Source: Candidatus Liptonbacteria bacterium (GTDB taxonomy: Bacteria; Patescibacteriota; Minisyncoccia; UBA6257; 2-01-FULL-56-20). From it: a DNA stretch of 64,000 nt. This document shows, one piece after another, positions 1-28,439 of the stretch (the first letter of the stretch is position 1; each line of letters begins with the position of its first letter). The notes under the pieces were generated by a model. It was given only the letters and a program-made list of their open reading frames with translations. It ran no database searches and was not told the origin of the DNA. A program made the position numbers and the translations under genes. The DNA lies in the NCBI GenBank assembly GCA_016212635.1, contig JACRFR010000018.1, positions 4,080 to 68,079 of the forward strand, read 5' to 3'.

Positions 1-3000
1 TTCTCCCCGGGAAAGATGACATCCGGGATGTCATGCGCTCGATTCAGGCGAAGGCGGAGCAGCTCAAGTGCGAAGGCAATGTCGAAGTTTTGTCTTGCCA
101 TGGGGAATCGACTCCCGAGGAGCAGGATCGTGTGCAGACACCACTCAAGCCCGGCACGCTGCGGTTTGTTTGCGGCACGGAAGTGCTTCGCTCGTCAGTG
201 ACGGTTCAAAATACCATTGGCATTATCGATTCGCTTCAGATCAAACGTCTGATAAGTGATGCAAAAGGCGTTGGCCACTTGGACAAGATTGCGGTTTCGA
301 AAGCCGAAGCCGATCAAGGAAAGGGACGCGCGGGCCGGACCCGCCCGGGATTCTATATGCCCGTGTCATTCGGATCGGAATATGAACGTCTGAACCCCTA
401 TCCGACTCCCGCTATATTACAGCAACCCATTACGAACGTAGTCCTTCAAGTTGCGGCCATTGACCGCTCGGCGCGGGATTTCGCATTCATTGATAAGCCA
501 CCGGCGGACAAACTTGAAACCGCGCTTACTCGCCTGAAGCGAATTGGTGCGCTGGACGCGGAAGAGAAAATAACCGAAGCCGGAGAAATGCTGGTGCAGT
601 TCCCGCTTGATCCGGAGCGGGCGAAGGTACTTCTCGTCGCGGAGAAACTCGGCGTGCTTTCCGAAGCGGTTATTGCGGCGGGAGTGCTCGAGGCAGAAAA
701 TGTTTTCTTCAGCCCAAACCGCGAACAGAAAACGTGCATGGTCGAAGAGACAGTGATGCGAAAAATTCTTTCGCATGTCGAAAAGGAGGAAAGGTATGGA
801 AGCGAATATTGGAAAAAGTTGTATGAACCACGCGATCCGGCAACTGTTGATATTGCCATCTTGCCAAAGTGGGCGAAGAAAAAAGGAGAGTATTGGGAAG
901 TCGACATTTCCGATTATGACTTTCCAATCGAAGATGGTGTCCGGGGAATTTCTAATGTGGTTCGCAAACAATGGGCAGGCAAAGATAAAAGCGACTTCGC
1001 AACCATTGTGCGGGCGTACCGTGCGTTTAAGGGCGAAGAGCGGCGGCTCCGCGATGCAGAACCTCCGCGCGAGCCTGGTCAGCAAAGAGAATCTCCCACA
1101 ACATGGAGGCGGAATATGCTTCAAGCGTGGTGCGAGCGCAATTTCATAAATCAGAAACGCATGCGCGAAGCCGAGCGAATCATGCATGAAATTCTTGATG
1201 AGCTTGATAACTCGCCGCTTCGTACGGAAAACCGCATTGCCTATAATCGCGACTTCAATGCCGAGTCATTAACCAAGGCGCTCGCTGCAGGACTTACGGA
1301 CAATGTCGCCCGAAAAAGCGGACGAGGTTTTACGGGCCCAATCGTCGAACGAGGACAGGATTTTCAGATCGGGCGGGAATCGGTGTGCCCAGATGGAAGC
1401 GAGCTTGTGATTGTGAGCGGCGTGCGTAAAATCCCGACACGGCGCCAAAGCTTCTTTTATCTCGCCGACCTCGCAGCGCCCATCAAGAAAGAATGGCTCA
1501 AGGAGGTCATGCCGCAACTTTGCACAAGCCGCCGAGAAGCAGATGCCGCGTACAGTCCCGACGCCGATGCAGTTCTTGAGACGGAAGCTTCGTTTTACGC
1601 CGATTTGGACCTTGGCCGCGAAAAAGTTCCCGCACCTTATACCGCCGAAAACGCACAGCGATTTGCCCGATGGCTCGCGGGATATAATGCAGCTCGGGAT
1701 ACAAAAAACGAGAAGCTTAAAGCTGTGCTTTTGGCCAACGATATGCAACAACAGCGTGCTACGAACCTGAACCTTCGTGTCGGAGAGGCGAAACTAAAAC
1801 AGTATTCAAACGAAGAAGTTTTTGCATTTTATTCTGAAAAATTGGCCGGTGCTTGGAAGCAGTCGGAGGTGGAAAACTCCGACGACTTACGCCTTCCGCC
1901 GCTCGAAGATGCTGAAGTCGAAAAGATACTTGCGCTTTACCCCGACAAGATATCCATTCTCGGGTCTGATGCTGAAGTTACGTACACTCAGCAGAGCAAA
2001 CGATCCGAAACTGGAGAATACGCGAATGTCATGGTTGCCCGAGTAAATCTCGGGGATCTTTCGGAGGGAAATAAATGGATGCAACTTCCGGAAGAAGGGG
2101 TAAAGCTGCCAAGCGGTTTCGTGGCAGAAATTCAGGTTTCTATAAAACGGGACGGATCCTATTGGAGCGAGAATTTCTCGAATACCGATATTGTCGCCTT
2201 GAAGGAAAAAATCACGGGGTACTTGAATCGTTCATTATGGGAGGAGTGGAAAGAACGTCCGGAAATTACAGCCCCTAATCCGGAAGATGATGATGCGGTT
2301 TTGCCCGCTATTACAACGGCTTCATATGGAACGTCTGTTGTGGATGGAACACCTCTAATGGCTTACGGCACGGTAGTCTTTAATTCCAATCGATACTATT
2401 CAACCGATCCTAGTTTCAAAACAGAATGGTTTTCGGTTCGTTTGGAGGCGGAAGAGTCCCACGCAAAAGCCGGAACGGAACTAGATAGCCTGAAAAAAGA
2501 GCGGCGCGATCAGAGAGAACTGAAAAGCGCGCAGGAAGCCGCGCAGCAATCCAAGGATCGGCTGAATAAGCTTTATGACCAGTACTACTACTCCGAAATA
2601 GATTCCGAGATGCGGAGTAAATTATACAACCGACGTTATGAATCGCTTCCATACCAAGCGTCGGAACTCAAGCAATGGAAAGCTGAGATCGACGCAACCA
2701 TCGCGGAGGTGGAAAGCGCGGTGGTCGAGGCGAATCGCAAAGGGGAGGAGGAAAACCAGCTACTTCTGAATTCTGCTCGTCCGATTGTCATGCCGGGAGA
2801 GACTACCAACGAGAACACCGTGTACGGGATGCCCTGCAACGAAGAAGGTCCCTGCGATGCGGATGTCGCCACCGAATGGCGGTTGTACTCTTACCAAGAC
2901 AGAAGATTACGGCCACACAAAGGATATCGTTCCAAATCATATGGCACCACCTTTGCGGAACTGATCCAAGATTATTTGCGCGACGATCCGAATTTGGATG

Positions 3001-4481
3001 CCGTACTGCGACAACTGACCCCGGAAGATTACCGGCGAGGCGAAAAGATCGGGGAAACATTGAAAGCGGTTCTGGACCAAGATTATGCCAGCTGCATAAT
3101 CTGCAAGGAATCTTGGCGCTGGGACGCGGAGGAGCTCAGTAATCCCCAGCGGGAGCCGCGCATTTCTTGTTCCTGTATGCACGAGGTGTCGAAATGGAGC
3201 CCGATTATCCAAGCGATCGAAAACGGCTTAGCGGGCGAAACCGTGGAGGTGGACGGGCGCACCGGCTCGGTCCTGCGGCGAACCACAGTGGACGGGAAGA
3301 CAGCCGTGGAAACCGCCGTGTATTTTAAGTACGGACACTGGAACTTGGCAGTGATCGTTAACCGCAGCGCGTTGGCCCACCCGGGAGTCCCGGAAACGCA
3401 AGACGTCTGGCACCAGCCGACCTCCGCGGAGATAGAGCTGGCCCATACCGAACGAGAAAAGGATGCTGTTTTGAGCAGGCTCCAGAGTGAATTGTCGAAC
3501 TACGAGTACGATCTGGAATCCGCTAACCGTTCTGCGGAAGAAGGATCAGTCCACAAAATTCAGTTTCGAAGAGGCAAGAACCCGAAAACCAACAAAGAGC
3601 AGTGGGAGGCCGATGTGAAAACGGCGGATGGTATAAGCTTGAAACTCATTTTGGACAGCAAGGATAAGACCGTCCCCAAGGACGGAGTAAATTATTTCTG
3701 TCGCGAATATCGCCGCCTTGTAGATAATCCCAAATTCAAGTTAATAATAGTTACTCCGTATTTGGAAGAGGGACGTAACATACAGGCAGAAATTGAAGAG
3801 ACGACCACAAAATTCGACTCGCAGATTGCCATGGCTAGGGTGCGGGTGGAAGAGGAGAAGAAACAAGCAACAGAAGCGAAGGCGGAAGCCGCAACCCCAG
3901 ATCTTGCAACTAAACTTCAGTCGGCCTTGGGATCACGGGTCGAACCAAAAAGGAATGGTACCGTTACCGGTCCTCCGCCTCTCCCGCCGAAAGAATCTTT
4001 CGAAAAAGCAAAATCAGTACCCGAGCCGGAGGTTATGACACCGGAACTCCAGAGAGAATTTATGGAGATGCTGGATGTTGCTGATGTATTGGTTAAAAGA
4101 ATGGTGGCAGAGGGACTCAAATTAAATGACCAACAGCGCGATTTGTTGCGAAGCACGCGCAAAGGACTGGAAGATCTGGTCGGCCGACCTGCGAGCATTC
4201 GTGGCCACATACGGACGGTTCTCGCGGCTATTGAATCGCAATACAAAAAGAAAGGCGTGGAAGCGGGATGGACAAAGAGAGTTTTGGAACTCTGGAATGC
4301 CGTGAATCAGGTAATTGCAGATAATCCCGACGCGCAAGAATATGTCCGTGAGGGTGTTGTAACCCAGGGGGCTCTCGCAGAAGAAGTGCGCAAGAAAATT
4401 CTTGCATCAACCCCGCTCATCCAGAGCGGAAGGGAAATAGATGTAAGCAATCTGCTTTTGGAGCAGATGCAGGAGTTATAA
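1..4481 (+). CDS. 5'-truncated giant protein. The N-terminal part matches the C-terminal region of a DEAH/HrpA-type RNA helicase (HA2 + OB-fold region), followed by a ~1000-aa coiled-coil/charged extension with a Cys cluster.
   Basis: The frame is open from the window edge. Motifs TNVVLQVAAID, LDAEEKITEAGEMLVQFPLDPERAKVLL (HA2) and WCERNFINQKRMREAERIMHEIL are typical of DEAH helicases downstream of the helicase core. The long C-terminal region includes CIICKESWRWD...SCSCMHE. Confidence 0.6.
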   Translation, partial: LPGKDDIRDVMRSIQAKAEQLKCEGNVEVLSCHGESTPEEQDRVQTPLKPGTLRFVCGTEVLRSSVTVQNTIGIIDSLQIKRLISDAKGVGHLDKIAVSKAEADQGKGRAGRTRPGFYMPVSFGSEYERLNPYPTPAILQQPITNVVLQVAAIDRSARDFAFIDKPPADKLETALTRLKRIGALDAEEKITEAGEMLVQFPLDPERAKVLLVAEKLGVLSEAVIAAGVLEAENVFFSPNREQKTCMVEETVMRKILSHVEKEERYGSEYWKKLYEPRDPATVDIAILPKWAKKKGEYWEVDISDYDFPIEDGVRGISNVVRKQWAGKDKSDFATIVRAYRAFKGEERRLRDAEPPREPGQQRESPTTWRRNMLQAWCERNFINQKRMREAERIMHEILDELDNSPLRTENRIAYNRDFNAESLTKALAAGLTDNVARKSGRGFTGPIVERGQDFQIGRESVCPDGSELVIVSGVRKIPTRRQSFFYLADLAAPIKKEWLKEVMPQLCTSRREADAAYSPDADAVLETEASFYADLDLGREKVPAPYTAENAQRFARWLAGYNAARDTKNEKLKAVLLANDMQQQRATNLNLRVGEAKLKQYSNEEVFAFYSEKLAGAWKQSEVENSDDLRLPPLEDAEVEKILALYPDKISILGSDAEVTYTQQSKRSETGEYANVMVARVNLGDLSEGNKWMQLPEEGVKLPSGFVAEIQVSIKRDGSYWSENFSNTDIVALKEKITGYLNRSLWEEWKERPEITAPNPEDDDAVLPAITTASYGTSVVDGTPLMAYGTVVFNSNRYYSTDPSFKTEWFSVRLEAEESHAKAGTELDSLKKERRDQRELKSAQEAAQQSKDRLNKLYDQYYYSEIDSEMRSKLYNRRYESLPYQASELKQWKAEIDATIAEVESAVVEANRKGEEENQLLLNSARPIVMPGETTNENTVYGMPCNEEGPCDADVATEWRLYSYQDRRLRPHKGYRSKSYGTTFAELIQDYLRDDPNLDAVLRQLTPEDYRRGEKIGETLKAVLDQDYASCIICKESWRWDAEELSNPQREPRISCSCMHEVSKWSPIIQAIENGLAGETVEVDGRTGSVLRRTTVDGKTAVETAVYFKYGHWNLAVIVNRSALAHPGVPETQDVWHQPTSAEIELAHTEREKDAVLSRLQSELSNYEYDLESANRSAEEGSVHKIQFRRGKNPKTNKEQWEADVKTADGISLKLILDSKDKTVPKDGVNYFCREYRRLVDNPKFKLIIVTPYLEEGRNIQAEIEETTTKFDSQIAMARVRVEEEKKQATEAKAEAATPDLATKLQSALGSRVEPKRNGTVTGPPPLPPKESFEKAKSVPEPEVMTPELQREFMEMLDVADVLVKRMVAEGLKLNDQQRDLLRSTRKGLEDLVGRPASIRGHIRTVLAAIESQYKKKGVEAGWTKRVLELWNAVNQVIADNPDAQEYVREGVVTQGALAEEVRKKILASTPLIQSGREIDVSNLLLEQMQEL

Positions 4482-4630
4482 TTTGTTTTATTTATTGGGC
4501 GTCTTGCCTTCTCCGGCTTTTAGTCGCCTTGTGGCTGTTCTCGGTTATCAACTACCCCGCCTGGACTCTCAAGAGGGTTGGCGTCATCCCTTGTGGTATG
4601 CCAAACCAAACACAAGCGCCAGTTGGGGCT

Positions 4631-5926
4631 ATGGCCAAAGAAATTCAAGCCCCCACAAAGGTCAGATACGTACTTTACGCAAGAAAAAGCATGGAATCGG
4701 AGGAGTAACAAATTTTGAGCATCGACAGCCAAATCAAAGAGATGCTCGCCATGGCGGAACGCGACCACCTTGAGATTGTGGAAATCAAAAAAGAGTCGCA
4801 CTCCGCCAAGGAGGCCGGACAGCGGCCGGTGTTCAATGAGATTGTAGAGGAAATAAAAAGTGGCAAGTTCAACGGCATCCTCACCTGGGCCGCTGATCGC
4901 ATCTCACGAAATGCTGGGGATCTCGGAAGGATTGTAGACCTCATGGATAGCGGGAAGCTCATCGAGATACGCGCCTACGGGCAGAAATTCACGAATAGTC
5001 CGAACGAGAAGTTTCTCCTCATGATCTTAGGCAGCCAGGCAAAGCTCGAGAACGACAACAAAGTAGTGAACGTGAAGCGAGGACTTAGAGCCAGATGCGA
5101 GATGGGATTATGGCCCTGCACCGCACCCACGGGATACCTAAACAGCACGAGTAAGGAGAAAAGCTGCGTGGTGGAGATTGATTCACACCGGGCATCCGTG
5201 GTTAAAAAGATGTTTGAAAAGGTGGCTTATGAAAATATGAGTGGCCGGCGTTTGCACGCATGGCTCAAGGATGAAGCTAAGTTCAGGGTAAGGAGTGGAA
5301 AGCCACTCACGATCGGTAATATCTACATCACCCTGCGGAATCCATTTTACTACGGATCATTTGAATATCCGAAAGGCGGAGGTCAGTGGTATACCGGCAA
5401 ACACACACCAATTATCACCAAGGAGCTTTTCGACATGGTGCAGGAAAAAATGGCGAACTATGCGGTACGGGGAGGAACAAAAGAATTCGCCTTCACGAAA
5501 CTCATGACCTGCGGATTATGCGGATCTGGTATCACGGCCGATGAAAAATTCAAGAAACAACAGAACGGCAACGTGCATCGGTATGTCTACTACGGCTGCT
5601 GCCGGTTCCAGGATAAGAATTGCAAATCAGGATACATGCGAGAGGAGGATTTGATCGAACAACTTGCAAACCTAATGGATGAAATCCATCTCGACGAGAT
5701 TGGTATGAAAGAACGAATCAAAACCGAAATCGAGCGGCACAAGAAATTCCAATCAGGACTACTTGGCATCAAAGAGAAAGCGGTCAAAGCCGGAGACATC
5801 GACGTGCGCAACTACGCCAAATACATCCTACGGGACGGAACAATGCTCGAAAAACGAGAGCTGCTATCCTGCCTGCGAAGTAAGATCACGATGGCGAAGA
5901 AAGAAGTGAAAATCGCGACTGCCTAA
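4631..5926 (+). pseudogene. Large serine recombinase (resolvase/invertase N-domain, recombinase domain and zinc ribbon) interrupted by an in-frame TAA at 4706-4708.
   Basis: ATG 4631 gives MAKEIQAPTKVRYVLYARKSMESEE*, which is the YARxS catalytic-serine motif. The same frame resumes as QILSIDSQ...DRISRNAGDLGRIVDLMDSGKL...CGLCGSGIT...YYGCCRF. The ORF track starts only at TTG 4715, after the stop. Confidence 0.7.
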
Positions 5927-5937
5927 ATAAAGCTGGG

Positions 5938-6492
5938 CTAGATGATTGACGGAGCAACTCGACTTGATTGAAAAGTCCAACCTCGCTCTGTAACTAATTC
6001 CCATAAGTTAAGACATTTAACGCCAAATAACGGATCATCGCAAACATTTGGCAGCTTATAGTTCTCAGGATCAGTGCTACCACTGTGAGTTTCTTCAGAA
6101 ATGATTTTAAGTTTGTGTAGTTTGGCCTGAGCAATAAGCCATGGATCCGCATAGACATCACTAGCTTTGTTTTTATTATTAACAAAAACTTTATACGTCA
6201 CGGACATGCTCCTGATAATCTTTCCCTCTATATCCTCATCGTGATTCTTGAAAATATGCTCATTGGCATGAGCCCAATTGTAGAGTTCCTCGCCCTTCTT
6301 CCCGTCTTTCTTTATTTCCGCCAATACCTCAGCGTGGGAGATGATCACTCCTTCGGCCATCAGTTCTTTGATCCTTTCCCAGAGGCCAGGATTAACACTC
6401 TTTGATATCCACGGCGTTTCGCTGAAAATTGACATCAAGGAGCAACTATCAATGGTATATTCTGCGGGTTTAGAAAAGAGATCACCTGGCAT
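5938..6492 (-). CDS. PIN-like (DUF4411-like) putative nuclease, co-operonic with the upstream XRE-ImmA gene.
   Basis: 184 aa with an 11-nt overlap with the upstream gene. N-terminal YTIDSCSLMSIF and later conserved acidic residues are consistent with a PIN-like fold. The DUF4411 assignment is from memory of that family's association with ImmA/IrrE genes. Confidence 0.4.
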   Translation of the reverse strand: MPGDLFSKPAEYTIDSCSLMSIFSETPWISKSVNPGLWERIKELMAEGVIISHAEVLAEIKKDGKKGEELYNWAHANEHIFKNHDEDIEGKIIRSMSVTYKVFVNNKNKASDVYADPWLIAQAKLHKLKIISEETHSGSTDPENYKLPNVCDDPLFGVKCLNLWELVTERGWTFQSSRVAPSII

Positions 6493-7675
6493 GAGAGTGT
6501 ATTAGTTTTTCCAACCCAGGCAAATGCTTCATCTTCAATCCAAGGTAATCTGAGATTCCCGAATACGGTATTTTTTTCTGCTTGTAAGCCTCAAAAACAA
6601 GAGAGCTAAAACCCACGCCATTTTTTGACAAGATAGTCTTCAGGGAAAATCTCCCACCCTTCTTCCCATTCGGCCGGGGTTCACCATCCCATTTTTTTGT
6701 TTTGGCTTCGTAAATTGCCGAAGTAACATAATTGAATGTTAGCAACCTCCTCAAAATTACCACTCGGCTCACTTTGAAATCAAAAGCTATCCGCTCAATT
6801 TTAGAATCGAGGTCCTCGGGGGATATTTTTGTCTTATCTTTCAAAGTTCTATGCTTTAAGAATTCCGCCTCCGGTACCAAGAAGCTGGCGGCGAACTGGT
6901 TGCAAAAAACCTCAAGCTTATTTATCCCATTCTTGTGACCGCTGAAAGATTTGAAGTTGTTGCAAATACCGGCTTCACGTAGAAGAACGTGCGCAAATTC
7001 ATGCGCCAAAGAAAAGTTCTTTGCTCCTTCAGTATCCTTATTGTTCACAAAAACCAGATATGGCTGTTGGTCAGCGAAAGAGAAAGCACGACAATCTGTT
7101 ATTGGAAAACTATCGTGAAGACCGCTTTTTAGGGTTATCACGCCCGCACTTTCGATTTTGTTCCGTAGGTACTCGAAGAAATCCTCGTACTTCTTGAAAC
7201 CAAATTGCTCATTTGCCGAAATCAAAAGGTCAGCTCTTATGTTTTCCGCTAATTCTGAAGCGTTCTCATCTAAGGAATGCCGTGCATATTTAAAAAAAGG
7301 TCTTTCGCCGAGTTCTTCATGGAGATCTGCGGATACCTCTTGAACTCTTCTCGCTTTTCTAATAGCCAAGAGTGCCGCCGGAGATAAGAGCTTATTATCT
7401 TCCGAGTTGATAGTTCTGAGATCTGGCGGATCCTTTTTTTCTTTCGGTGGACCATCGAGAAAGAATACGGCCAGGGGTCGTTTATATATTTCCGCGAGTT
7501 TTCTTACCTGTGCGAAGGTCGGCTGAGCAATTCCATTTTCCCACTCCTTAATGAGATCGGGGGTGACTTCTTTCCATGATTCAACCCAATTGGCCAGCAA
7601 AATTTCCATTTTTGGGCCAAATCTTTTTTCACGTGCCCATTTCAATACTACAGGTTCAAATCTCAAATCTGCCAT
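6482..7675 (-). CDS. Fusion of an XRE-family HTH domain and an ImmA/IrrE (COG2856, M78-like) zinc metallopeptidase.
   Basis: N-terminal HTH (QPTFAQVRKLAEIYKRPLAVFF) and an HEFAHVLL HExxH motif mid-protein. 397 aa. Confidence 0.8.
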   Translation of the reverse strand: MADLRFEPVVLKWAREKRFGPKMEILLANWVESWKEVTPDLIKEWENGIAQPTFAQVRKLAEIYKRPLAVFFLDGPPKEKKDPPDLRTINSEDNKLLSPAALLAIRKARRVQEVSADLHEELGERPFFKYARHSLDENASELAENIRADLLISANEQFGFKKYEDFFEYLRNKIESAGVITLKSGLHDSFPITDCRAFSFADQQPYLVFVNNKDTEGAKNFSLAHEFAHVLLREAGICNNFKSFSGHKNGINKLEVFCNQFAASFLVPEAEFLKHRTLKDKTKISPEDLDSKIERIAFDFKVSRVVILRRLLTFNYVTSAIYEAKTKKWDGEPRPNGKKGGRFSLKTILSKNGVGFSSLVFEAYKQKKIPYSGISDYLGLKMKHLPGLEKLIHSHAR

Positions 7676-7836
7676 AACTAAATTATAGCAATAAACAGCC
7701 CCGAAAAAACATCTGGTAAAAACTTATAACCGCCTTTCAAAGAGGTAATCTAGACAGCTTCTTAGCGGTTATTTACTCTTTCGTACTCGTTCTATTCGTC
7801 TTGACTGGTTAGAAGAAAGTCGGCATTTAAGCCTCA

Positions 7837-7880
7837 TGGTCGGTCTCACTGCGTTGTGCCCTCGAGAGGAATCGAACCCA
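7837..7880 (-). repeat. Degenerate copy of the 3' half of tRNA-Arg plus its 16-nt downstream flank (att-like direct repeat).
   Basis: GGTTCGATTCCTCTCGAGGGCACAA + CGCAGTGAGACCGACC aligns with the T-arm/acceptor/3' flank of the tRNA at 9084-9127. The flank is identical and the tRNA part has about 6 mismatches. The T-stem can no longer pair, so it is not a functional tRNA. Confidence 0.55.
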
Positions 7881-7956
7881 GTAAAACTCTCCCCTAGATG
7901 ACGGCGAATTGCCACGGGGCAGACACGTATTGTTGGTTACAGTACTGAAGTTTTAT

Positions 7957-9051
7957 TTAAAGAGTTGCAAACAACCCCAACTCTATACCGATGTCGTATG
8001 CCTCATCCACAGAACACGTCATGATTTTTCTATAGCTTTTCCGGCCAAACCTTTTTTCGACAGCTCTGGCCAGGGGCAATATTTTGCCATCAATCCTTGC
8101 CTGCTCTGCGAGATTTTGGAACTCCGGGATTTCTGCTCTTAGGCGTGAGACAAGAAGGAAAGCGGCGGCAGATTGGGAGCCAAAACTTACAGTACTACCG
8201 TCAAAATTAAATATCCTCCGAGATTCTTCCGGGAAGTTGTCTAGCCGCGGATCTTTTTCGGCCACATAGTTCAGTAACTTAGCGTACAAAGCTTTTCCTT
8301 TGGGAAATTGTGTTTGGAGTAAGTTGTCTGCGTCTTCTTCTGCGAGCATGGCTAGACCCTCTTCGACCGCCGGAGTTTGTAGACCTGCCTCGCATCTAAT
8401 ATATCCCAAACCTCTCCGCTCCAAAGGCTTTACGCTATCGAAAACATGTTCATTTTCTCCAGTCGCCTTGTTTCGCACGGTGCGAAACAGAAGAGAAAAC
8501 GGTGCGGCATCGTGGTATAGCTCATGTAGAACTTGGCGGGCCTCAATATATTCTCTTACTGCTTTTGCGGCACCCGGCCTAGTCATTCCGCCTAAACTTT
8601 TTTCATCTGTCATGGCAATTGGGTGAAAATGATCATCATCCCTTATTCTTTGATCGAGAGAACTGGGCACAAGTTTTTCTTTTGTTAAATTATGTAGGAC
8701 GATATATCCGAAGCTAGTGCCCGCCCGGAGGGCAGTTATGTTCCCCTCCTCCATAGAAGATGGGTTCCGCAATTTAAAGATGCGTTCTTGTTCTGTCCAT
8801 CGTATTGGACTCAACACACCAAATTTACAAAATCGCTTCTCGTGCCACCGTCTAGCCCGGGAACTGAAATTTCGCATCTCGACCGACAGTTCAATAGTTC
8901 CTTCTTTGGCCGTTCGTGCTACTTCGTTCATTGTCACTTTAACACCCATTCTAGTTCTGGAGATTCTTTGCCTCTCTTTCTTGTCTAGTAAGTCTGCAGA
9001 CCGTTCCTTGTTGAGAATAAAGTTTTCTCCTGGCCTGGTAAAGTTTCTCAT
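7957..9051 (-). CDS. Hypothetical protein (364 aa) lying between the tRNA-derived direct repeats.
   Basis: Long ORF with no motif I can assign. Bounded by the 7837-7880 and 9084-9127 repeats. Confidence 0.5.
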   Translation of the reverse strand: MRNFTRPGENFILNKERSADLLDKKERQRISRTRMGVKVTMNEVARTAKEGTIELSVEMRNFSSRARRWHEKRFCKFGVLSPIRWTEQERIFKLRNPSSMEEGNITALRAGTSFGYIVLHNLTKEKLVPSSLDQRIRDDDHFHPIAMTDEKSLGGMTRPGAAKAVREYIEARQVLHELYHDAAPFSLLFRTVRNKATGENEHVFDSVKPLERRGLGYIRCEAGLQTPAVEEGLAMLAEEDADNLLQTQFPKGKALYAKLLNYVAEKDPRLDNFPEESRRIFNFDGSTVSFGSQSAAAFLLVSRLRAEIPEFQNLAEQARIDGKILPLARAVEKRFGRKSYRKIMTCSVDEAYDIGIELGLFATL

Positions 9052-9100
9052 AATAATTGCTGCATGCTTGTATTATTGCGCCTCGGTCGGTCTCACTGCG

Positions 9101-9175
9101 TGGTGCCCCCGGCAGGAATCGAACCTGCATCACCTCCTTCGGAGGGAGATATCCTATCCGTTGAACGACGAGGGC
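9101..9175 (-). tRNA. tRNA-Arg (anticodon CCG), 75 nt with encoded CCA.
   Basis: Folded by hand. Acceptor GCCCTCG/CGGGGGC, D-arm, anticodon stem TCTCC/GGAGG with loop CTCCGAA (U33, A37), 4-nt variable loop, T-arm GCAGG-TTCGATT-CCTGC, discriminator A, CCA. Confidence 0.85.
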
Positions 9176-9180
9176 GGAAG

Positions 9181-9212
9181 ATGATCATTGATTATTAATC
9201 ATTGATTATTAA
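9181..9212. promoter_or_regulatory. Tandem palindromic motif (TGATTA-N-TAATCA x2) directly upstream of tRNA-Arg. The same motif recurs at 46088-46118.
   Basis: ATCATTGATTATTAATCATTGATTATTAA contains two overlapping 13-bp palindromes. A 20-nt core TATTAATCATTGATTATTAA is shared with the 46-kb locus. Confidence 0.45.
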
Positions 9213-9223
9213 GCGGCACGCTC

Positions 9224-10306
9224 TCACCCTAGCATGAAAAAGTAAAGTTCGCAAACTGCGGCTGCGGCGAAGGCGGCGGCGGCCAGGGTTAGCAGCCACG
9301 ACTTAAAGCCGCTGGGCCGCAGGACCGAGCGCACAACCAGAGCCAGTAAGACGTACTGGATGGCCAGGAACAGGCCGCCGACAAAACCGATGGTTCGGAT
9401 CACGTCCGCGGACCGGAATGCGATCGCGAGGAGAAGCGGCAGGAGCGCCACCGCGAGATCGGTCGCGAACTCCGGAATGCGCGCGCCCTCCCGCAGGGAA
9501 CGGAGCACTTCGCGGCCGACCGGCACATAAGAGGTCCAGATCGCCGTCAAGCCGCAAAACGCGATGGTCCGAACCAGCGAACTCGACTCGCTGCCGAAAC
9601 CCAGGATGGCGGCGGCAAAGATCGCATAGACTACGGCCACCACCGCGGCCGAGACGGCAAACATCCCCGGGGCGCCAAATGATGTTCTGGCATACTTCCG
9701 GCGCAGAACCGCCACCGGCTCCACCGCTGTCCAGCCGGTTAGGGCGAACAGGATGGCGCCGAACGGCAAAAAGGCCGCCGCGAGATTCACGCGCGGCTCG
9801 CCCCGAAAGGTCAGATCGGGCGCGAGCACCGCGAGGAGCAGCACGATGCCAACCAAAAGGAGGGTGCCCACGGCCTCGGCCCGGGCGAAGCGCCGGATCC
9901 CGATAAAAAGCGGTAGGGTGGAAACCACCCAAAGCAGCAGGAGCGCCGGCCAACCTAAGAGTCCCGGCAATAAAGTCTCCACGAAAGCGGAGCCGAGTTG
10001 CAAGTAAATGAAAAGGGTCAGGAGGTTGCCGCAGATGATCGCCAGAAGTCCGGCGGTTCCGGCCAGGGGTCCGAGTCGAGATCGGACCAGCTCCAGGAGG
10101 CCCATCTTGTTGCCGGTTCGCACGAGCGCCTGGTAGTAGGCGGCGTGAAGCGCGGCTAGCGCGATCGAGAGCCCGACTAACCACGCTAAGGCAATGAGCC
10201 AGCCGGACTGGTGGAAGGTAACCGGCAGGGCAAAAATACCGGCGCCGATGGTCGTGCCGCCGACGATACTGATCGACCACCAGAACAGTTTACGGGAGTC
10301 GGACAT
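9224..10306 (-). CDS. Polytopic membrane transporter, amino-acid permease-like (APC/Trp-Tyr permease-like).
   Basis: 360 aa with about 10 hydrophobic segments. N-terminal GAGIFALP motif. Confidence 0.55.
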   Translation of the reverse strand: MSDSRKLFWWSISIVGGTTIGAGIFALPVTFHQSGWLIALAWLVGLSIALAALHAAYYQALVRTGNKMGLLELVRSRLGPLAGTAGLLAIICGNLLTLFIYLQLGSAFVETLLPGLLGWPALLLLWVVSTLPLFIGIRRFARAEAVGTLLLVGIVLLLAVLAPDLTFRGEPRVNLAAAFLPFGAILFALTGWTAVEPVAVLRRKYARTSFGAPGMFAVSAAVVAVVYAIFAAAILGFGSESSSLVRTIAFCGLTAIWTSYVPVGREVLRSLREGARIPEFATDLAVALLPLLLAIAFRSADVIRTIGFVGGLFLAIQYVLLALVVRSVLRPSGFKSWLLTLAAAAFAAAAVCELYFFMLG

Positions 10307-23432: not shown

Positions 23433-25946
23433 TTACACTGAATTAAAAAGTGAATTAAATTTCCGCCTCCATTCGTTTTCGAAAATAACTTGGAAATTTA
23501 TATGGCTCTTTTGGAGTGCTAATCCCAAATCGCTCATTTTCTTTTCGTCCGCCATTTTATTGCACACTTCGAAAAGCGACTTTTTGTAATCGGTATCCTC
23601 GTTTTTTAGGTGCACCCCTTTTGTTTCGATTATAAACACCGACCCGCCGACCTTTCCGTTGGCTACGGAGAAAATAAAGTCGGGGTACACTTTTTGTTTT
23701 TTCCACCCTTGAATGGCATAATCGCTACGCGCGACATTCCGGAACCAGAAAAACAACTTGTCCTGGTCCTCTAGATACCATGCCACCGCTTTTTCTGTTT
23801 TGTTAAACTCGTCCTCTGCTACGAATTCAAACAAGCTTCTCTGAAGCGGCTGCCCATCATTTCGTAAGAGTGGGCGTGATAAAGTTTTTGCCTTGATTTG
23901 CTTAGGGAATTTGAAGCCGAGATCGTTTCCGATCACCAGAAACTTCAGTCGTCCCGCGTCAAGAAGTTTTTGAAACACTTGTTTCGAAAGGCGATTTTTC
24001 TCGCTTGAAAGAAGTTTGCGCAATTCCTCGATAACAAAAACAAAATTATTGGCCACCAATTTAATATTGTGCCGGGCAATTAATTCTTTAAGCACCAAGG
24101 CACCGATTTTATAGGAAAGCCATGGATTGGGTACAATATCGAGCAGGTGCCGAGCGAGAAAAACTTCATCTAACTTTAAAGCGCCGCTTCTCAAATGTTT
24201 TACACCCTGTTGTTCGATAAGTTTGTGCGGGTTGGTAGCTAGCGACACGATCTGCTCGATGTCTTTTTCTTCGATGAGGGAGAGGGGAAGCGAATACATC
24301 GGCTCGATATTTATTTCATTCCAGTCAATGCGGCTTGCAATGTCGCGCTCATAATTTACGACCCAAGATTCCCGCCCGTCTTGCATGACGAATACGGGCA
24401 GGATAATCTGGCTCACCGCTTTTTTGAATTTTTCCCGAATCAAAACGTTTTTTTCTCTAACCGCTTCTGATCCTTCAAGGCCTTCGTCCGTTACCACTTG
24501 CCCCGCAAGATCGCCAAGCCCCTCCTGTTCGAATCCTGATCGAATGTTCGACAAAAGAGCGCTGGCTCGTTGTTGGTAGCAAAACACATAACTTTCATCA
24601 AGCTCTTTCACTTTTGTTTTCCTTGCGAACGGCTGACGAAGAATGCGTCCAACGAGCTGGGTTAAAGCATTCTGGGATGTCGGATTTGAAAGAATGGTTA
24701 GCACATACGCAAACGGGCAGTCCCAGCCCTCCTGAAGCGCTTGCTTGGTTATGATGTACCTGATCTGACAATCCCGCGACAAAAGTCCGCCCACGTCATC
24801 GACCTCTTTAAGTTCGTCCTTCTCGCTTGTTTTAGTGGCGATCTGCTCGGCCGGAATGCCCATGGTTTTTATGAGAAACTCGCGCACGTCTTCGGCGTGG
24901 ATACGCCCGCTATCCCTTTGGTCTTTTCCGGTTCGTTCAACTTGAATCAAAACAATCGGGCGGATATAGGCTCCTTTATTCGCCTCGTACTCTTGTGCTT
25001 TTTCTTCTAAAAAACCGCGATGGTTTACCGCCGCCAAAAGTGTATCTTTCCAATCCGTGCTCGCCTTATTGATGATGTGCAGGTCAAGCTTAATCATTCC
25101 CTCCTGATTAAGTTCCGCGCCGCGAATATCAACCAAAATATTGCTTTCTTCCGGCGGTGTTGCGGAAAGTTCAAGAATCATCAAGGGGTTGAAACTGCGA
25201 AGCGTGCTCTGCGCCGTTTCACTGTATGCTTTGTGTCCCTCGTCAAGAATGATTAAAGGATTTAAAAGCCGGAGCGTGTTTCCCAGTGATGTTTTGATCT
25301 GATATTCCCAAAAGTTTCCCGCCTCGCCATAAGTATTGAGGTTGGGAATTTGTTTTAGTAATTCTTGATTGGCCTTGATGTTGTCCTCTGGCGGGAAGAA
25401 GTCCTGAAAACCGCCATTGTCTTTAAACATCCGGAGTGTCTCTTTGTTTTGACGCGAAGCCGACGGCAACATCAGTATAAGGACTACTAGATTTTCGTTT
25501 ATATCGAGCGGGACAAACCGATCCGTTTTCTCCAAAATCGTAGTCCGACCACCACTCGCAATATCAAGGTGTTGCCGATAGGGATGTTCTCGATCTCGTA
25601 AACTTCTTATCGTTTGATTATAAATTTGCGTGGTGGGCACTATCCAAAGAATAAGCCCTGTGCGCTTTTTGAGATAAGTTGTATTGATGAGATCGATCGC
25701 CTTTACGGCAAGCAGTGTTTTGCCGCCGCCGGTTGGGATCTTGAGGCAGAAGTTAGGCAATGGATTACCAATGCCGTTTTTATGCGAGTGATACTTCTTG
25801 CCGACTTCTGCCTTTTCCCACGCCTTCGCCGGAAAATCTATCTCCAGCTCCGGGTTTTGCGCGGCTTTCGTGCGCCAACCATTAAGTTGCTCGAGGTAAT
25901 GCTTGAGCTGTTCCAGGGTCTTTATTTGATAATCCTTGAGTTCCAT
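23433..25946 (-). CDS. res: Type III restriction enzyme Res subunit (SF2 helicase plus C-terminal PD-(D/E)xK nuclease).
   Basis: PTGGGKTL (motif I), LIILDEGHKA (DEAH-like motif II), and a C-terminal VYPDFIF...IIETKG nuclease motif. Confidence 0.85.
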   Translation of the reverse strand: MELKDYQIKTLEQLKHYLEQLNGWRTKAAQNPELEIDFPAKAWEKAEVGKKYHSHKNGIGNPLPNFCLKIPTGGGKTLLAVKAIDLINTTYLKKRTGLILWIVPTTQIYNQTIRSLRDREHPYRQHLDIASGGRTTILEKTDRFVPLDINENLVVLILMLPSASRQNKETLRMFKDNGGFQDFFPPEDNIKANQELLKQIPNLNTYGEAGNFWEYQIKTSLGNTLRLLNPLIILDEGHKAYSETAQSTLRSFNPLMILELSATPPEESNILVDIRGAELNQEGMIKLDLHIINKASTDWKDTLLAAVNHRGFLEEKAQEYEANKGAYIRPIVLIQVERTGKDQRDSGRIHAEDVREFLIKTMGIPAEQIATKTSEKDELKEVDDVGGLLSRDCQIRYIITKQALQEGWDCPFAYVLTILSNPTSQNALTQLVGRILRQPFARKTKVKELDESYVFCYQQRASALLSNIRSGFEQEGLGDLAGQVVTDEGLEGSEAVREKNVLIREKFKKAVSQIILPVFVMQDGRESWVVNYERDIASRIDWNEINIEPMYSLPLSLIEEKDIEQIVSLATNPHKLIEQQGVKHLRSGALKLDEVFLARHLLDIVPNPWLSYKIGALVLKELIARHNIKLVANNFVFVIEELRKLLSSEKNRLSKQVFQKLLDAGRLKFLVIGNDLGFKFPKQIKAKTLSRPLLRNDGQPLQRSLFEFVAEDEFNKTEKAVAWYLEDQDKLFFWFRNVARSDYAIQGWKKQKVYPDFIFSVANGKVGGSVFIIETKGVHLKNEDTDYKKSLFEVCNKMADEKKMSDLGLALQKSHINFQVIFENEWRRKFNSLFNSV

Positions 25947-25955
25947 GGGTCGCCT

Positions 25956-25973
25956 GTGGATAACTGTGGATAA
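25956..25973. promoter_or_regulatory. Two tandem perfect DnaA-box-like 9-mers (TGTGGATAA x2; TTATCCACAG x2 on the res strand), 10-30 nt upstream of the res start codon.
   Basis: CTGTGGATAACTGTGGATAACT. The same 12-mer CTGTGGATAACT occurs at 13299-13310, 17 nt upstream of the Mur ligase start. Confidence 0.5.
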
Positions 25974-25975
25974 CT

Positions 25976-26068
25976 TTGACTTTCTACATTAATCTCTGCT
26001 ATACTGCAGGCGTAGGAGAAATCCTACTACTCACGCGGTCCCGCCAAAAGCGGGATTTTCGCTTTTTA
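25976..26068 (+). ncRNA. Candidate ~55-nt plus-strand transcription unit between res and the NYN gene: a sigma70-like promoter (TTGACT-18-TATACT), a GTAGGA-GAAA-TCCTAC hairpin, then an intrinsic terminator (CCCGC-CAAAA-GCGGG + ATTTTCGCTTTTTAT).
   Basis: All elements were read directly from the sequence. It is oriented antisense to the res/NYN operon. Confidence 0.35.
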
Positions 26069-26737
26069 TACGTAAAATCTTTTGCCGGTATAAAATTTGC
26101 CAAAGTCAATATATTTATCTTTGATGCCATGTAATTCTCCTGCCACTTTCCCCCGCACGCCAGCAATGCCGATTTTTTTGCCTTTTACTTTCAGTCGTTC
26201 TATTGGTTTTAATAAATCCGAATCGCCAGAGAATAAAATGATTGCTGTCGCTTTTTCGGCATCATCCAGCATATCCATTGCTATTTCCACATCAAAATTA
26301 CACTTCGGCTCTTCAATTATCGTGCCGAATTTATTAAGCTCACTCATTAGCTCCTGAATCTTTTTCCTAACGCCTTCATCAAACAAAGTCAGCGTCCGGC
26401 GCTGGAAGAATAAGCCCTCGTCAATATTTTTTGGAATAAACTTCATCGGTTTTGTTCTTAAAATAGCGCCGGCCGTCCTAATGCGATTATGGAAAGCTTC
26501 GGAGTTTTTCTCGTCTCGCTCATTCAAGCCGTAATAAACCTTAACTTCTTTTATGTTGGGAAAGTTAAACAGTTGCTCCACTATGTCCTCTATGCGGAAT
26601 TTCCACCCTAGAACATCTTGCCAATGGAACATATTCGTTAAATCTAAATAAGCAAAGATTGATGTCTCTTTACTTATCCATTCCAAATAATCTTGTCTCA
26701 CAATAAACTTATTCAAAACGTCTCGTGGAATATCCAT
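26066..26737 (-). CDS. NYN-domain (LabA-like PIN-related) putative nuclease, encoded between the type III mod and res genes.
   Basis: ILFSGDSDLLKPIERLK and N-terminal acidic motifs. The start ATG 26737 lies 4 nt after the mod stop. Confidence 0.7.
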   Translation of the reverse strand: MDIPRDVLNKFIVRQDYLEWISKETSIFAYLDLTNMFHWQDVLGWKFRIEDIVEQLFNFPNIKEVKVYYGLNERDEKNSEAFHNRIRTAGAILRTKPMKFIPKNIDEGLFFQRRTLTLFDEGVRKKIQELMSELNKFGTIIEEPKCNFDVEIAMDMLDDAEKATAIILFSGDSDLLKPIERLKVKGKKIGIAGVRGKVAGELHGIKDKYIDFGKFYTGKRFYV

Positions 26738-26741
26738 AGCT

Positions 26742-28439
26742 TTATTTCGCCAGTTTATAAATCTCAAACGGCAATTGGGCAAAAACGATGCGGTATCCGT
26801 CCAGTTTTTCCTGGTCTAGATATTTTGTGGGCGCGAAAACCAAGCGCTTCTTTGTTTTCACTTTCCCAAGCTCTTTCGCTTTATCCAGAGTAAGAGCAGT
26901 ATTTTTTAGATAAGCGAGATCTGGCTTGTAGAAAAGATAAACCTCGTATTCTTTGCTTTCGCCGATAAAATTCTTCTTCTCGTTTATTTTCTTTTCGTTG
27001 AATTCCTCGCCGGTCGCGGTATAAAAAACATAGCGCGCGAGTTCGTTGTAGGAAGGCAGATTTTTGCCCGACAAAATGCTTTCCATTTCTATCGGTTTGC
27101 CGAGTTCAAAATAGCTAAATGTTCCACCTAGTCCTTTTTTGAGATTCTCGTCTTTGGCGGTTTTCACTCCCCTGATGACGCGCCGCACTCGCTCCGCGGT
27201 TATTGTGTCAGTGTAATCTTCCATCTCAACGAGGATAAATTTTCGATTGCCACCATCCTCTTTGTTGAGCGCCAAAACTGCGTGAGCAGTCGTGCCAGAA
27301 CCGGCAAAGGAGTCGAGAATTATGGAATCTTTATCTGTTGCAATTTCTACAATTCTTTTCAGTAAACCTAACGGCTTAGGATATTCAATTGTTTTTCTCT
27401 CGAGAATAAGTTTTAAAAGCTTGCCCCCTAATTCCGTATTGACCTCTGAATCCAACCACATTGAACGAGGTTTAGCGGTTTTTTGTTCGCCGTTTCGATT
27501 CAAATAATCTTTAATAAAAATGTCGAATTCATCTCGACCGCTTACTTTTCGGCCATATATTCGATTAATTTCATCCATCACTTTTTTCTTGCCCCACATC
27601 CATCTACCATCCCTTCCGTCAGATTTTCTTGGGAAAACTTCAACTGTGTGATCTTTAGTTTTCTCTAAACTTACAATCCCGTTTTTTGAATTAACATAAA
27701 TTGGAAAAAACATTTCTGGTCTTTCTTCGCGTAAAGAAGCGGCTCCGCGCTGGCGTAAACCAAGTTCTCTCCATTTCTTGCCGTCTTTATCTTGCTGATC
27801 GTATTCATCAATATTTTCTTGTGTCAGAGGCAAACCATTCAAAATTACTTCGTCTATGCCCCTGGTATAACAAAGACAATACTCATGCAACGTAGCAACG
27901 TTTTCATCAGATTGGCGACCGCGCGGATTAGCTTTGATCGAAAAGTTGGTAATGAAGTTTTCTTCGCCAAAAACTTCGTCCATTAAATCTCTTAGATGAT
28001 GTTGTTCATTGTCATCAATCGAAATAAAAATCGCGCCGTCGTCTCGCAATAATTCTCGTAATAACTTTAAGCGCGGTGTCATCATGCACAACCATTTATC
28101 GTGGCGGGTTAGATCGTCGCGATCCACCACCCTCCCCAGCCATTCCTGCATCATCGGAGAATTCACATTGTCGTTATACGCCCATCTTTCATTGCCGGTG
28201 TTGTATGGCGGATCGATGTAAATGCACTTTACCTTGCCCGCATAGGTAGGGAGTAGCGCTTTGAGGGCGACAAGGTTGTCGCCGTGGATAATAAGGCTAT
28301 CATCCAGCCGGACATTGCCTGCCCTTTTATCCTTCCCTTCGACCAAACTCAAGGCAGGTCGCGGAATAAGCTCGCGGTACTTCACCGCCAGATGATGATT
28401 CTGGACGAATTGCTTTCCTTTGAAATTCAGTTGGGCCAT
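26742..28439 (-). CDS. mod: Type III restriction-modification Mod subunit (N6-adenine/N4-cytosine DNA methyltransferase, beta class).
   Basis: IYIDPPYNTGNE (DPPY motif IV) before DSFAGSGTTAHAV (motif I). Confidence 0.85.
   Translation of the reverse strand: MAQLNFKGKQFVQNHHLAVKYRELIPRPALSLVEGKDKRAGNVRLDDSLIIHGDNLVALKALLPTYAGKVKCIYIDPPYNTGNERWAYNDNVNSPMMQEWLGRVVDRDDLTRHDKWLCMMTPRLKLLRELLRDDGAIFISIDDNEQHHLRDLMDEVFGEENFITNFSIKANPRGRQSDENVATLHEYCLCYTRGIDEVILNGLPLTQENIDEYDQQDKDGKKWRELGLRQRGAASLREERPEMFFPIYVNSKNGIVSLEKTKDHTVEVFPRKSDGRDGRWMWGKKKVMDEINRIYGRKVSGRDEFDIFIKDYLNRNGEQKTAKPRSMWLDSEVNTELGGKLLKLILERKTIEYPKPLGLLKRIVEIATDKDSIILDSFAGSGTTAHAVLALNKEDGGNRKFILVEMEDYTDTITAERVRRVIRGVKTAKDENLKKGLGGTFSYFELGKPIEMESILSGKNLPSYNELARYVFYTATGEEFNEKKINEKKNFIGESKEYEVYLFYKPDLAYLKNTALTLDKAKELGKVKTKKRLVFAPTKYLDQEKLDGYRIVFAQLPFEIYKLAK

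Follow-up and report, generated by a model that had tools for sequence, protein, structure and literature searches.

A probable VapBC52-type toxin–antitoxin gene pair beside a serine recombinase gene in a Candidatus Liptonbacteria genome

Introduction

What do a zinc peptidase fused to a helix-turn-helix (HTH) domain and a protein of the DUF4411 family do together when their genes overlap? The question is raised by two genes in a window of 64,000 nucleotides (nt), the whole stretch of DNA analysed here, taken from a metagenome-assembled genome (MAG) of Candidatus Liptonbacteria (Patescibacteria; contig JACRFR010000018.1, positions 4,080 to 68,079). At NCBI, the exact proteins are labelled 'ImmA/IrrE family metallo-endopeptidase' and 'DUF4411 family protein'. 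A sequence-only reading of the locus had taken them for a candidate toxin–antitoxin (TA) or abortive-infection module, with the remark that COG2856 and DUF4411 genes had been predicted as a TA pair, and this prediction does exist in the literature. The fusion of a COG2856 Zn-peptidase with an HTH domain was described as a frequent partner of PIN toxins, with Rv2515c as an example, and a 'three-component' TA system was predicted (Makarova et al. 2009, PMC2701414). DUF4411.1 genes were later reported downstream of fused DUF955(COG2856/ImmA)-HTH genes (Matelska et al. 2017, PMC5499597).

Here we propose that the two genes very probably form a member of the family of Mycobacterium tuberculosis VapBC52 and, by analogy with that pair, are likely to function as a TA system. 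The architecture was already predicted between 2009 and 2017 and was characterised in 2026; the window pair is a further example of it in Patescibacteria.

Two overlapping genes

Both open reading frames (ORFs) in the program-made ORF list start with ATG on the minus strand, and they overlap by 11 nt.

6482..7675, minus strand: predicted antitoxin gene of the VapB52 type, 397 amino acids (aa), with HTH, IrrE/ImmA (M78) zinc-peptidase and C-terminal helical domains (Pfam, PDB homology, AlphaFold2 (AF2) model)
5938..6492, minus strand: predicted toxin gene of the VapC52 type, a DUF4411 PIN-like nuclease of 184 aa (Pfam, PDB homology, AF2 model)
6482..6492, minus strand: overlap of antitoxin stop and toxin start, 11 nt, ATGCCAGGTGA (read directly from the sequence)

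The sequence-only reading had placed this overlap correctly to the base. Since the N-terminal stretch M..DLFSKPAEYTIDS of the toxin is kept in the alignment of its homologues, the ATG at 6492, and hence the 11-nt overlap, can be taken as real. Overlaps of 8-23 nt were also present in six independent homologous metagenomic loci. Read as a sequence feature, the shared stop and start indicates operon organisation with translational coupling. Both ORFs run at full length, with neither a frameshift nor a stop codon inside.

Homology to the VapBC52 complex

The assignment is carried by homology to proteins of solved structure. In a sequence-based search of the PDB, the 397-aa protein matched 9vzy chain A (VapB52, a 'HTH cro/C1-type domain-containing protein' of 393 aa) with a phmmer E-value of 1.5e-28 (residues 8-389 against 4-384), and its family profile matched the same chain at 9.5e-68 (9-393 against 2-386). 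The 184-aa protein matched chain D of this entry ('DUF4411 family protein') at 9.2e-10 with phmmer and, over its full length, at 2.8e-14 with the family profile. Identities amount to 30.6% for VapB52 and 31.1% for VapC52. Entry 9vzy is the M. tuberculosis VapBC52 complex and 9vzz the VapC52 toxin, with Rv2515c as the antitoxin and Rv2514c as the toxin (Singh et al., Nucleic Acids Research, June 2026, PMC13273310).

According to that study (PMC13273310), VapC52 is a tRNase with a PIN fold, cutting tRNAs in their anticodon or variable loops. Its antitoxin VapB52, with 20 helices and 4 strands, is unusually large and binds the VapC52 dimer at a ratio of 1:2, as seen in the crystal structure and by isothermal titration calorimetry (ITC). 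Its HTH-like N-terminal domain (NTD) sits on the outside of the VapC52 dimer and forms the main toxin-binding interface, its four-helix C-terminal domain (CTD) occludes the toxin active site, and its middle domain is an IrrE/CapP-like zinc peptidase kept inactive by a cysteine switch, with H216, H220, E245 and C229 as Zn ligands. Single-stranded DNA (ssDNA) leads to a peptidase-dependent self-cleavage of VapB52 in which the NTD is removed; the linker F75-R76 was proposed as the site, which was not mapped by sequencing. Toxicity, neutralisation, the 1:2 complex, tRNA cleavage and the ssDNA-triggered self-cleavage were all observed in the M. tuberculosis homologue only (PMC13273310).

Domains and residues of the antitoxin

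The predicted antitoxin can be divided into the parts described for VapB52, each with a defined position in the gene.

7460..7654, minus strand: five-helix XRE-type HTH NTD, residues ~8-72 (helices 8-19, 23-28, 39-46, 54-64 and 68-72; Foldseek)
7415..7423, minus strand: linker tripeptide D85-L86-R87, aligned with the VapB52 'FR motif' F75-R76 (VapB52 alignment)
6989..7003, minus strand: HEFAH zinc-binding and catalytic motif with H225, E226 and H229 (invariant in homologues; aligns with VapB52 H216/H220)
6911..6964, minus strand: predicted cysteine-switch loop, C238 to E255, the latter the third Zn ligand (invariant; aligns with VapB52 C229 and E245)
6488..6643, minus strand: four-helix CTD, residues ~345-396 (helices 345-352, 354-365, 371-378 and 382-396; VapB52 aligned to chain residue 384-386)

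The combination of an HTH with a HEFAH zinc peptidase, which the sequence-only reading had seen in the 397-aa protein, was borne out. Pfam assigned residues 193-311 to Peptidase_M78 (E=3.2e-17), with HEFAH at residues 225-229. The Pfam HTH_3 match at residues 37-70 was weak (E=1.4e-3, with 19 bits where the gathering score is 23 bits), and precomputed PF01381 matches are present in many homologues of the protein. We uphold the weak call because the five-helix NTD of the AF2 model matches HTH folds in Foldseek, namely lambda cI-NTD, C.BclI and an HTH_3 regulator, with probability 0.99-1.0. The model, built with 28 homologues, reached a predicted local distance difference test (pLDDT) score of 88 and a predicted template-modelling (pTM) score of 0.87, and its 19 helices and 4 strands fall into an NTD of five helices, a peptidase core with four strands and a CTD of four helices, a layout that mirrors the one published for VapB52. 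Its Foldseek neighbours, CapP 7t5t, IrrE 3dti, PprI-ssDNA 8sln and M. tuberculosis PrpR, are the same as those listed for VapB52 in its description. The Foldseek PDB library ended on 2026-04-08 and was without 9vzy and 9vzz; its fold matches are therefore to generic VapC and CapP/IrrE structures, and the solved homologue came from the sequence-based search.

Residues were mapped through the phmmer alignment to 9vzy chain A, where the chain index equals the published number plus 1. In this alignment, VapB52 H216 corresponds to H225, H220 to H229, C229 to C238, E245 to E255, and D-F75-R76 to D85-L86-R87. Seven positions (H225, E226, H229, C238, E255, D85 and R87) are invariant across 28 homologues reaching down to 35% identity. 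In these alignments, every catalytic or regulatory residue named in PMC13273310 is kept here, with Leu-Arg replacing Phe-Arg in the linker. Position 86 differs by clade, being L, F, R or A, and is L in the window protein. Since Asp and Arg alone are invariant in this tripeptide, the published 'FR' motif generalises to D-x-R. IrrE cuts DdrO at the Leu-Arg bond L106/R107 and requires the Arg (PMC6868357), and the Leu-Arg at the aligned cleavage position of the window antitoxin is the same dipeptide. The linker has a lower pLDDT of 70-75, and loop residues 246-249 fall below 50; in the model, the linker and the loop after C238 are thus probably flexible. The 23-residue disordered N-terminal extension of VapB52 is absent from the window antitoxin.

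A DUF4411 toxin with a VapC fold

The 184-aa protein matched Pfam DUF4411 over its full length (E=1.5e-24; residues 12-174 against 1-159 of 159), as the sequence-only reading had suspected from its N-terminus and acidic residues. Its AF2 model (pLDDT 83) has a fold that matches VapC-type PIN toxins, the top Foldseek PDB matches all being VapC toxins with probability 1.0. Of the profiles that bear on the pair (M78, HTH_XRE and DUF4411/PIN), the peptidase and the toxin profile therefore match strongly, and the HTH, weak as HTH_3, is backed by structure.

6448-6450 (D15), 6316-6318 (E59), 6145-6147 (D116) and 6091-6093 (E134), minus strand: acidic residues of the predicted toxin, invariant in homologues

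All four are invariant in the alignment of 18 homologues, and D15 aligns with the catalytic D6 of VapC52 in the family-profile alignment to 9vzy_D. At its C-terminus, the toxin carries a 9-aa extension that is atypical when compared with its homologues. Elsewhere, a 351-aa protein (P0216) has DUF4411 at its C-terminus alone (residues 225-350), fused to an N-terminal region without assignment.

Pairing and distribution of the two genes

We scanned GTDB representatives, one genome per species, for pattern-matched loci (185,579 species representatives; the Liptonbacteria MAG itself is not included). The scan returned 34 loci distributed over many phyla. Bacterial hosts are Acidobacteriota, several Patescibacteria classes, Verrucomicrobiia, Actinomycetota, Gammaproteobacteria and Gemmatimonadota, and archaeal hosts are Woesearchaeota, Nanoarchaeia, Methanosarcinales, Altarchaeum and Nitrosopumilaceae. 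With 34 loci in so many species, the pair is sporadic and horizontally spread rather than a core gene pair of the relatives. In a profile search of 1.84 billion representatives, 2,934 DUF4411 relatives were found at E<=1e-3. Relatives also occur on six sequenced plasmids, of which the two inspected (Methylorubrum and Rhizobium) have an adjacent peptidase gene annotated upstream, and in one phage-like record; both window proteins match PHROG families.

The M78-HTH gene lies directly upstream of the DUF4411 gene in all 33 of the assessable GTDB-representative loci and in 6/6 metagenomic contexts, an essentially obligate pairing that holds in bacteria and archaea very far apart. The other neighbours of the homologues vary and are defence and mobile-element genes, among them type I restriction-modification (R-M), AbiEii, PycTM, Bil-type genes of the ubiquitin-like kind, ThsB-TIR, relaxase/TrwB and serine recombinases.

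Two loci depart from the intact form of the pair. In a Pyrinomonadaceae MAG (L024, 5795-7003) the antitoxin gene is split into two ORFs, and in another MAG (L017, 5096-5644) the C-terminal half of the antitoxin stands alone (profile positions 218-396); the toxin gene is intact in both. The damage may reflect assembly errors, or natural variants that keep only the part plugging the active site.

The strictness of the pairing bears on a different view of the 397-aa protein, in which it would be a repressor-protease of element or stress genes in the manner of ImmR/ImmA or IrrE/DdrO, and the DUF4411 protein a regulated effector rather than a bound toxin. The HTH and M78 architecture is common to ImmA/ImmR, IrrE/DdrO and CapP/CapH, a regulatory cascade is what was originally proposed for such fusions (PMC2701414), and the module adjoins a recombinase gene. 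However, DUF4411 is the strict partner (33/33) while all other neighbours vary, the loci have no conserved operator in common, and the contact-making NTD and CTD are conserved along the full window protein. For the homologue, structure and ITC show that the antitoxin binds the toxin directly at 1:2 and occludes its active site (PMC13273310). We regard such a regulator as quite improbable and retain the reading as a directly binding antitoxin.

A promoter-like element before the antitoxin gene

A candidate extended -10 element was spotted by reading the sequence upstream of the antitoxin gene, and was then tested across loci.

7682-7690 (element 7676..7690), minus strand: putative promoter of the extended -10 type, TGCTATAAT, whose end is 6 nt away from the antitoxin ATG at 7675

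The form (GA)TTGCTATA(A/C)T-N6-7-ATG is common to 7/7 close relatives from different phyla (including L005, L007, L008, L012, L013 and L014). Over the wider set, a TAnnnT hexamer stands 5-8 nt before the predicted start in 16/36 loci, against a background of 6.1% for ATGs in general. From the position of this element, the antitoxin–toxin mRNA is probably leaderless, with a promoter that travels with the module. Local inverted repeats are also found upstream of the antitoxin gene in the window.

Recombinase, tRNA and island context

On the side of the toxin gene, the pair adjoins a recombinase gene, and on the other side it faces a tRNA gene.

4631..5926 (4715-5926 in the ORF list; widest extent 4529-5926), plus strand: large serine recombinase gene, convergent with the toxin gene across an 11-nt gap (Pfam Resolvase, Recombinase and Zn_ribbon_recom)
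7838-7878, minus strand: degenerate att-like copy of the 3' end of tRNA-Arg together with the 16 nt that follow it (direct repeat of 41 nt; 90% identity to 9085-9125)
9101-9175, minus strand: tRNA-Arg(CCG), 1.4 kilobases (kb) from the TA pair (tRNA call)

The TA pair has a GC content of 42.2%, against 53.4% for the window, and lies on the accessory side of the tRNA-Arg. Core genes start directly to the right of the tRNA (a beta-CASP enzyme resembling RNase J, a Mur ligase, Pol I and RuvB). An Rfam search of 4400-9400 gave nothing above threshold besides the tRNA. Directly upstream of the tRNA-Arg, on the tRNA strand, a 14-nt unit ATCATTGATTATTA is perfectly duplicated in tandem (two copies, 9184-9211).

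The recombinase gene has an in-frame TAA at 4706-4708, directly after the catalytic-serine motif YARKS (YARKSMESEE, the stop, then QILSIDSQ). Intact homologues of ~450 aa align across the stop, and the gene is probably a pseudogene made by a single nonsense mutation. An assembly error was ruled out, the TAA being identical in two independent Logan assemblies, and the many long ORFs in the standard code make a different genetic code unlikely.

The lesion invites the thought that the whole locus is a decaying remnant without current function, like its recombinase. The adjacent nonsense codon, reproduced in two assemblies, the mosaic island with a degenerate att copy and the atypical 9-aa C-terminal extension of the toxin all fit such decay. 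Against it, both ORFs of the pair are full length without frameshift or stop codon, all invariant family residues are kept in both proteins, and neither the promoter-like element nor the start/stop overlap is damaged. Loss of the antitoxin first would be lethal, and intact pairs therefore tend to persist. We consider a dead locus very improbable and continue with a working TA pair.

That the pair is cargo of a mobile element, as the sequence-only reading had supposed from the recombinase and a tRNA att site, is supported by the low GC, the linkage with a recombinase and an att-like repeat. However, the recombinase is inactivated, and the TA genes do not lie between the two repeats. The att-like copy sits between genes, upstream of the antitoxin gene, and the repeats at 7838-7878 and 9085-9125 bracket a 364-aa ORF only (an insert of ~1.25 kb). 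They were rejected as borders of a TA-carrying element for this reason. Because the T-stem strand differs, the displaced copy probably comes from the attP of another element or from another tRNA allele. As far as its repeats and genes can be read, the tRNA-Arg region looks like a tandem or mosaic integration hotspot.

The bracketed ORF (7957-9051, minus strand), which separates the TA pair from the tRNA, is annotated at NCBI with 324 aa as hypothetical protein HY978_01240. It gave no Pfam, NCBIfam or PHROG match and no recombinase signature, although an integrase would be expected between att-like repeats. Only 8 homologues were found in 5.8 billion clusters, all hypothetical, and the two with an organism name are from Patescibacteria.

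The linkage with the recombinase is better seen in the relatives. Two other Patescibacteria genomes, L013 and L015, have an intact recombinase homologue of 58-60% identity directly beside their TA pair, and since recombinase and pair are the only synteny shared with these loci, a three-gene mobile block is suggested. Most close-clade loci have a serine recombinase within 8 kb, and the more distant members, all the archaeal ones included, have none within that distance.

This linkage opens the question of whether the main role of the pair is addiction, the post-segregational stabilisation of a serine-recombinase element, and not phage defence. The parts would be the same, and once the element is lost, synthesis of the antitoxin would cease and the stable toxin would be set free. 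The directly adjacent block as the only one shared with the two other genomes, the recombinase near most close-clade loci and the occurrence on plasmids are in line with addiction, as is the report that the intact VapBC52 pair gave no phage protection (PMC13273310). Yet the distant members have no recombinase nearby, defence genes (type I R-M, AbiEii, PycTM, Bil-type and ThsB-TIR) are frequent among the neighbours of the homologues, and a strictly conserved ssDNA-sensor and protease apparatus would be superfluous for simple addiction. Addiction as the main role is therefore possible but rather unlikely in our view, and the two roles are not mutually exclusive.

Two further regions of the window contain genes of a different kind. 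A 1482-aa protein (33-4481, plus strand) has the C-terminal part of Helicase_C, followed by HA2 winged-helix and ratchet domains, and a further ~1,200 residues without a domain match apart from a faint LmuB; its DEXH motor half seems to be missing or to lie off the window, and truncation or splitting of the gene is possible. A second low-GC patch (23433-28439, minus strand; 43% over 24-28 kb), located between Pol I and RuvB, encodes a ResIII/DEAD helicase of 837 aa, a protein of 238 aa with an NYN domain and an N6_N4 DNA methylase of 565 aa. These domains make it a defence cluster that resembles type III restriction-modification, with an NYN nuclease embedded in it.

Comparison with known systems

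The window pair shares with M. tuberculosis VapBC52 the gene order, the three-domain antitoxin, the Zn ligands, the cysteine switch, the linker Arg and a DUF4411 PIN toxin with its catalytic Asp. It differs in the linker, with Leu-Arg instead of Phe-Arg, and in sequence, with an identity of ~31%. VapBC52 belongs to an actinobacterial pathogen, whereas the window pair, known from its genes alone, lies in a Patescibacteria MAG with a serine recombinase and a tRNA-side island. The 'three-component' HTH-DUF955(COG2856)/DUF4411.1 systems that were predicted earlier have the same architecture, gene order and sporadic mobile spread (PMC2701414, PMC5499597). Those studies were bioinformatic and proposed that the protease acts on a separate Xre repressor, while the VapBC52 data indicate that the fused protein cleaves itself.

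In canonical VapBC systems, VapB is a small protein of 8-13 kDa and of the ribbon-helix-helix (RHH), AbrB or PhD type. It binds its toxin 2:2 or 4:4, and host proteases degrade it. The window pair resembles canonical VapBC in its PIN toxin with four acidic residues, in having the antitoxin first and in its overlapping genes. In contrast to a small VapB, its antitoxin is a 45-kDa protein with HTH and M78 domains and a protease of its own.

Among catalogued defence systems, RosmerTA (RmrT/RmrA, Millman et al. 2022) is an anti-phage TA system with an antitoxin of HTH and Zn-peptidase domains and a toxin without assigned function, whose description cites Matelska 2017. The window antitoxin matched 15 PADLOC RmrA models (best 2.6e-14; 19-51 bits), some near full length (25-275 against 25-259 of 397). 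RosmerTA was nevertheless rejected as an assignment, the toxin having no RmrT match and the RmrA matches being at the level of the domain only. Because the toxin is without a match, the module is not a catalogued defence system in the PADLOC 2023 library. In NCBIfam, the antitoxin matched only the 'spr1629 family repressor/antitoxin' (47 bits against a cut-off of 335 bits) and the toxin nothing.

CapP/CapH of CBASS (anti-phage signalling based on cyclic oligonucleotides), IrrE/DdrO and ImmA/ImmR use an IrrE-family M78 peptidase with a cysteine switch and activation by ssDNA or DNA damage, as is predicted for the window antitoxin, and the latter matched the PADLOC capP model at 2.3e-16. In these systems the protease cuts a separate HTH repressor, whereas in the window HTH and protease form one chain whose output would be release of a toxin. 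Neither CBASS genes nor a separate repressor gene were found near the pair, the neighbours being the recombinase, the orphan 364-aa ORF and the helicase-like ORF. A CapP/CapH-regulated CBASS was accordingly discarded, as there is no CapH repressor gene, cyclase or effector, and the peptidase domain alone resembles CapP.

Proposed mechanism and its limits

We propose that the genes form a type II TA operon of the VapBC52 type, in which the 184-aa DUF4411 protein would be a metal-dependent ribonuclease with a PIN fold, most likely one that cuts tRNAs in the anticodon or variable loop. By analogy with the VapB52:VapC52 crystal structure, the 397-aa protein would neutralise it through direct binding, with one antitoxin per toxin dimer, the HTH NTD clamping the outside of the dimer and the four-helix CTD plugging the active site. 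The central IrrE/ImmA-type peptidase would be held off by Cys238 as fourth zinc ligand, the 'cysteine switch', until ssDNA from phage replication or DNA damage opens it. It would then cut its own NTD-to-peptidase linker at D85-L86|R87, and with the toxin-holding domain lost, the freed nuclease would stop translation and bring about growth arrest or abortive infection. The operon would be read as a leaderless mRNA from the extended -10 promoter that travels with the module, and would have arrived by horizontal transfer as a three-gene block with the large serine recombinase, now inactivated.

The steps of this scheme differ in how far they can be trusted. For the window pair itself, the analysis shows the gene structure, the full-length homology to VapBC52, the conserved residues, the PIN and IrrE folds, the strict pairing and a foreign base composition. 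The exact scissile bond L86|R87, the same series of steps in the window pair, the leaderless promoter and a role in phage defence are inferred. Membership in the VapBC52 family stands as the firmest element, followed by a function as a TA system; for ssDNA-triggered self-cleavage of the window antitoxin, the chances appear evenly balanced.

Several observations weigh against the scheme. Identity to the characterised system is only ~31%, the case for the window pair being built on homology and models, and the host is an uncultured Patescibacteria bacterium. The 'F' of the FR motif is not conserved; the window protein has L in its place, and other clades have R or A. A scan of the minus strand upstream of the operon for the sigma-70 consensus found no promoter, and upstream in the relatives no operator-like palindrome is shared, with nothing conserved beyond the -10-like box. 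The study of VapBC52 reports no DNA-binding or autoregulation test of VapB52 (PMC13273310). Protection against phage D29 was obtained with over-expressed VapC52 only, cells co-expressing VapB52 and VapC52 being unprotected (PMC13273310), and the 184-aa toxin matched no PADLOC model, RmrT included (E<=0.1, 2023 library). Since the published protection relied on over-expressed toxin, the co-expressed pair was unprotective and the toxin has no PADLOC match, we hold an anti-phage role of the window pair to be tentative, somewhat less probable than self-cleavage.

Implications

A broader interpretation, which we put forward as speculative and rather doubtful, is that the three-gene block is a self-contained mobile cassette of ~3.2 kb with its own leaderless promoter, moving among Patescibacteria and with TA relatives reaching DPANN and other archaea. 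The antitoxin would serve both as a lock on the cassette and as an anti-phage device in reduced-genome symbionts. The residue that precedes the invariant Arg, which differs by clade (L, F, R or A), would, as part of this interpretation, suggest a co-evolving cleavage specificity rather than a fixed 'FR' site. Were it true, the antitoxin would be among the few innate anti-phage devices open to reduced-genome symbionts.

In terms of annotation, the two window proteins, labelled only 'ImmA/IrrE' and 'DUF4411', can now be named as a VapBC52-type TA pair with a concrete, testable mechanism. To the 2026 description of this system, our analysis adds the essentially obligate pairing of the two genes, the generalisation of the linker motif to D-x-R, a putative promoter of leaderless type shared by close relatives and the linkage with recombinases in candidate-phyla bacteria. 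These findings do not overturn the current understanding, and represent a modest extension of a known system into Patescibacteria.

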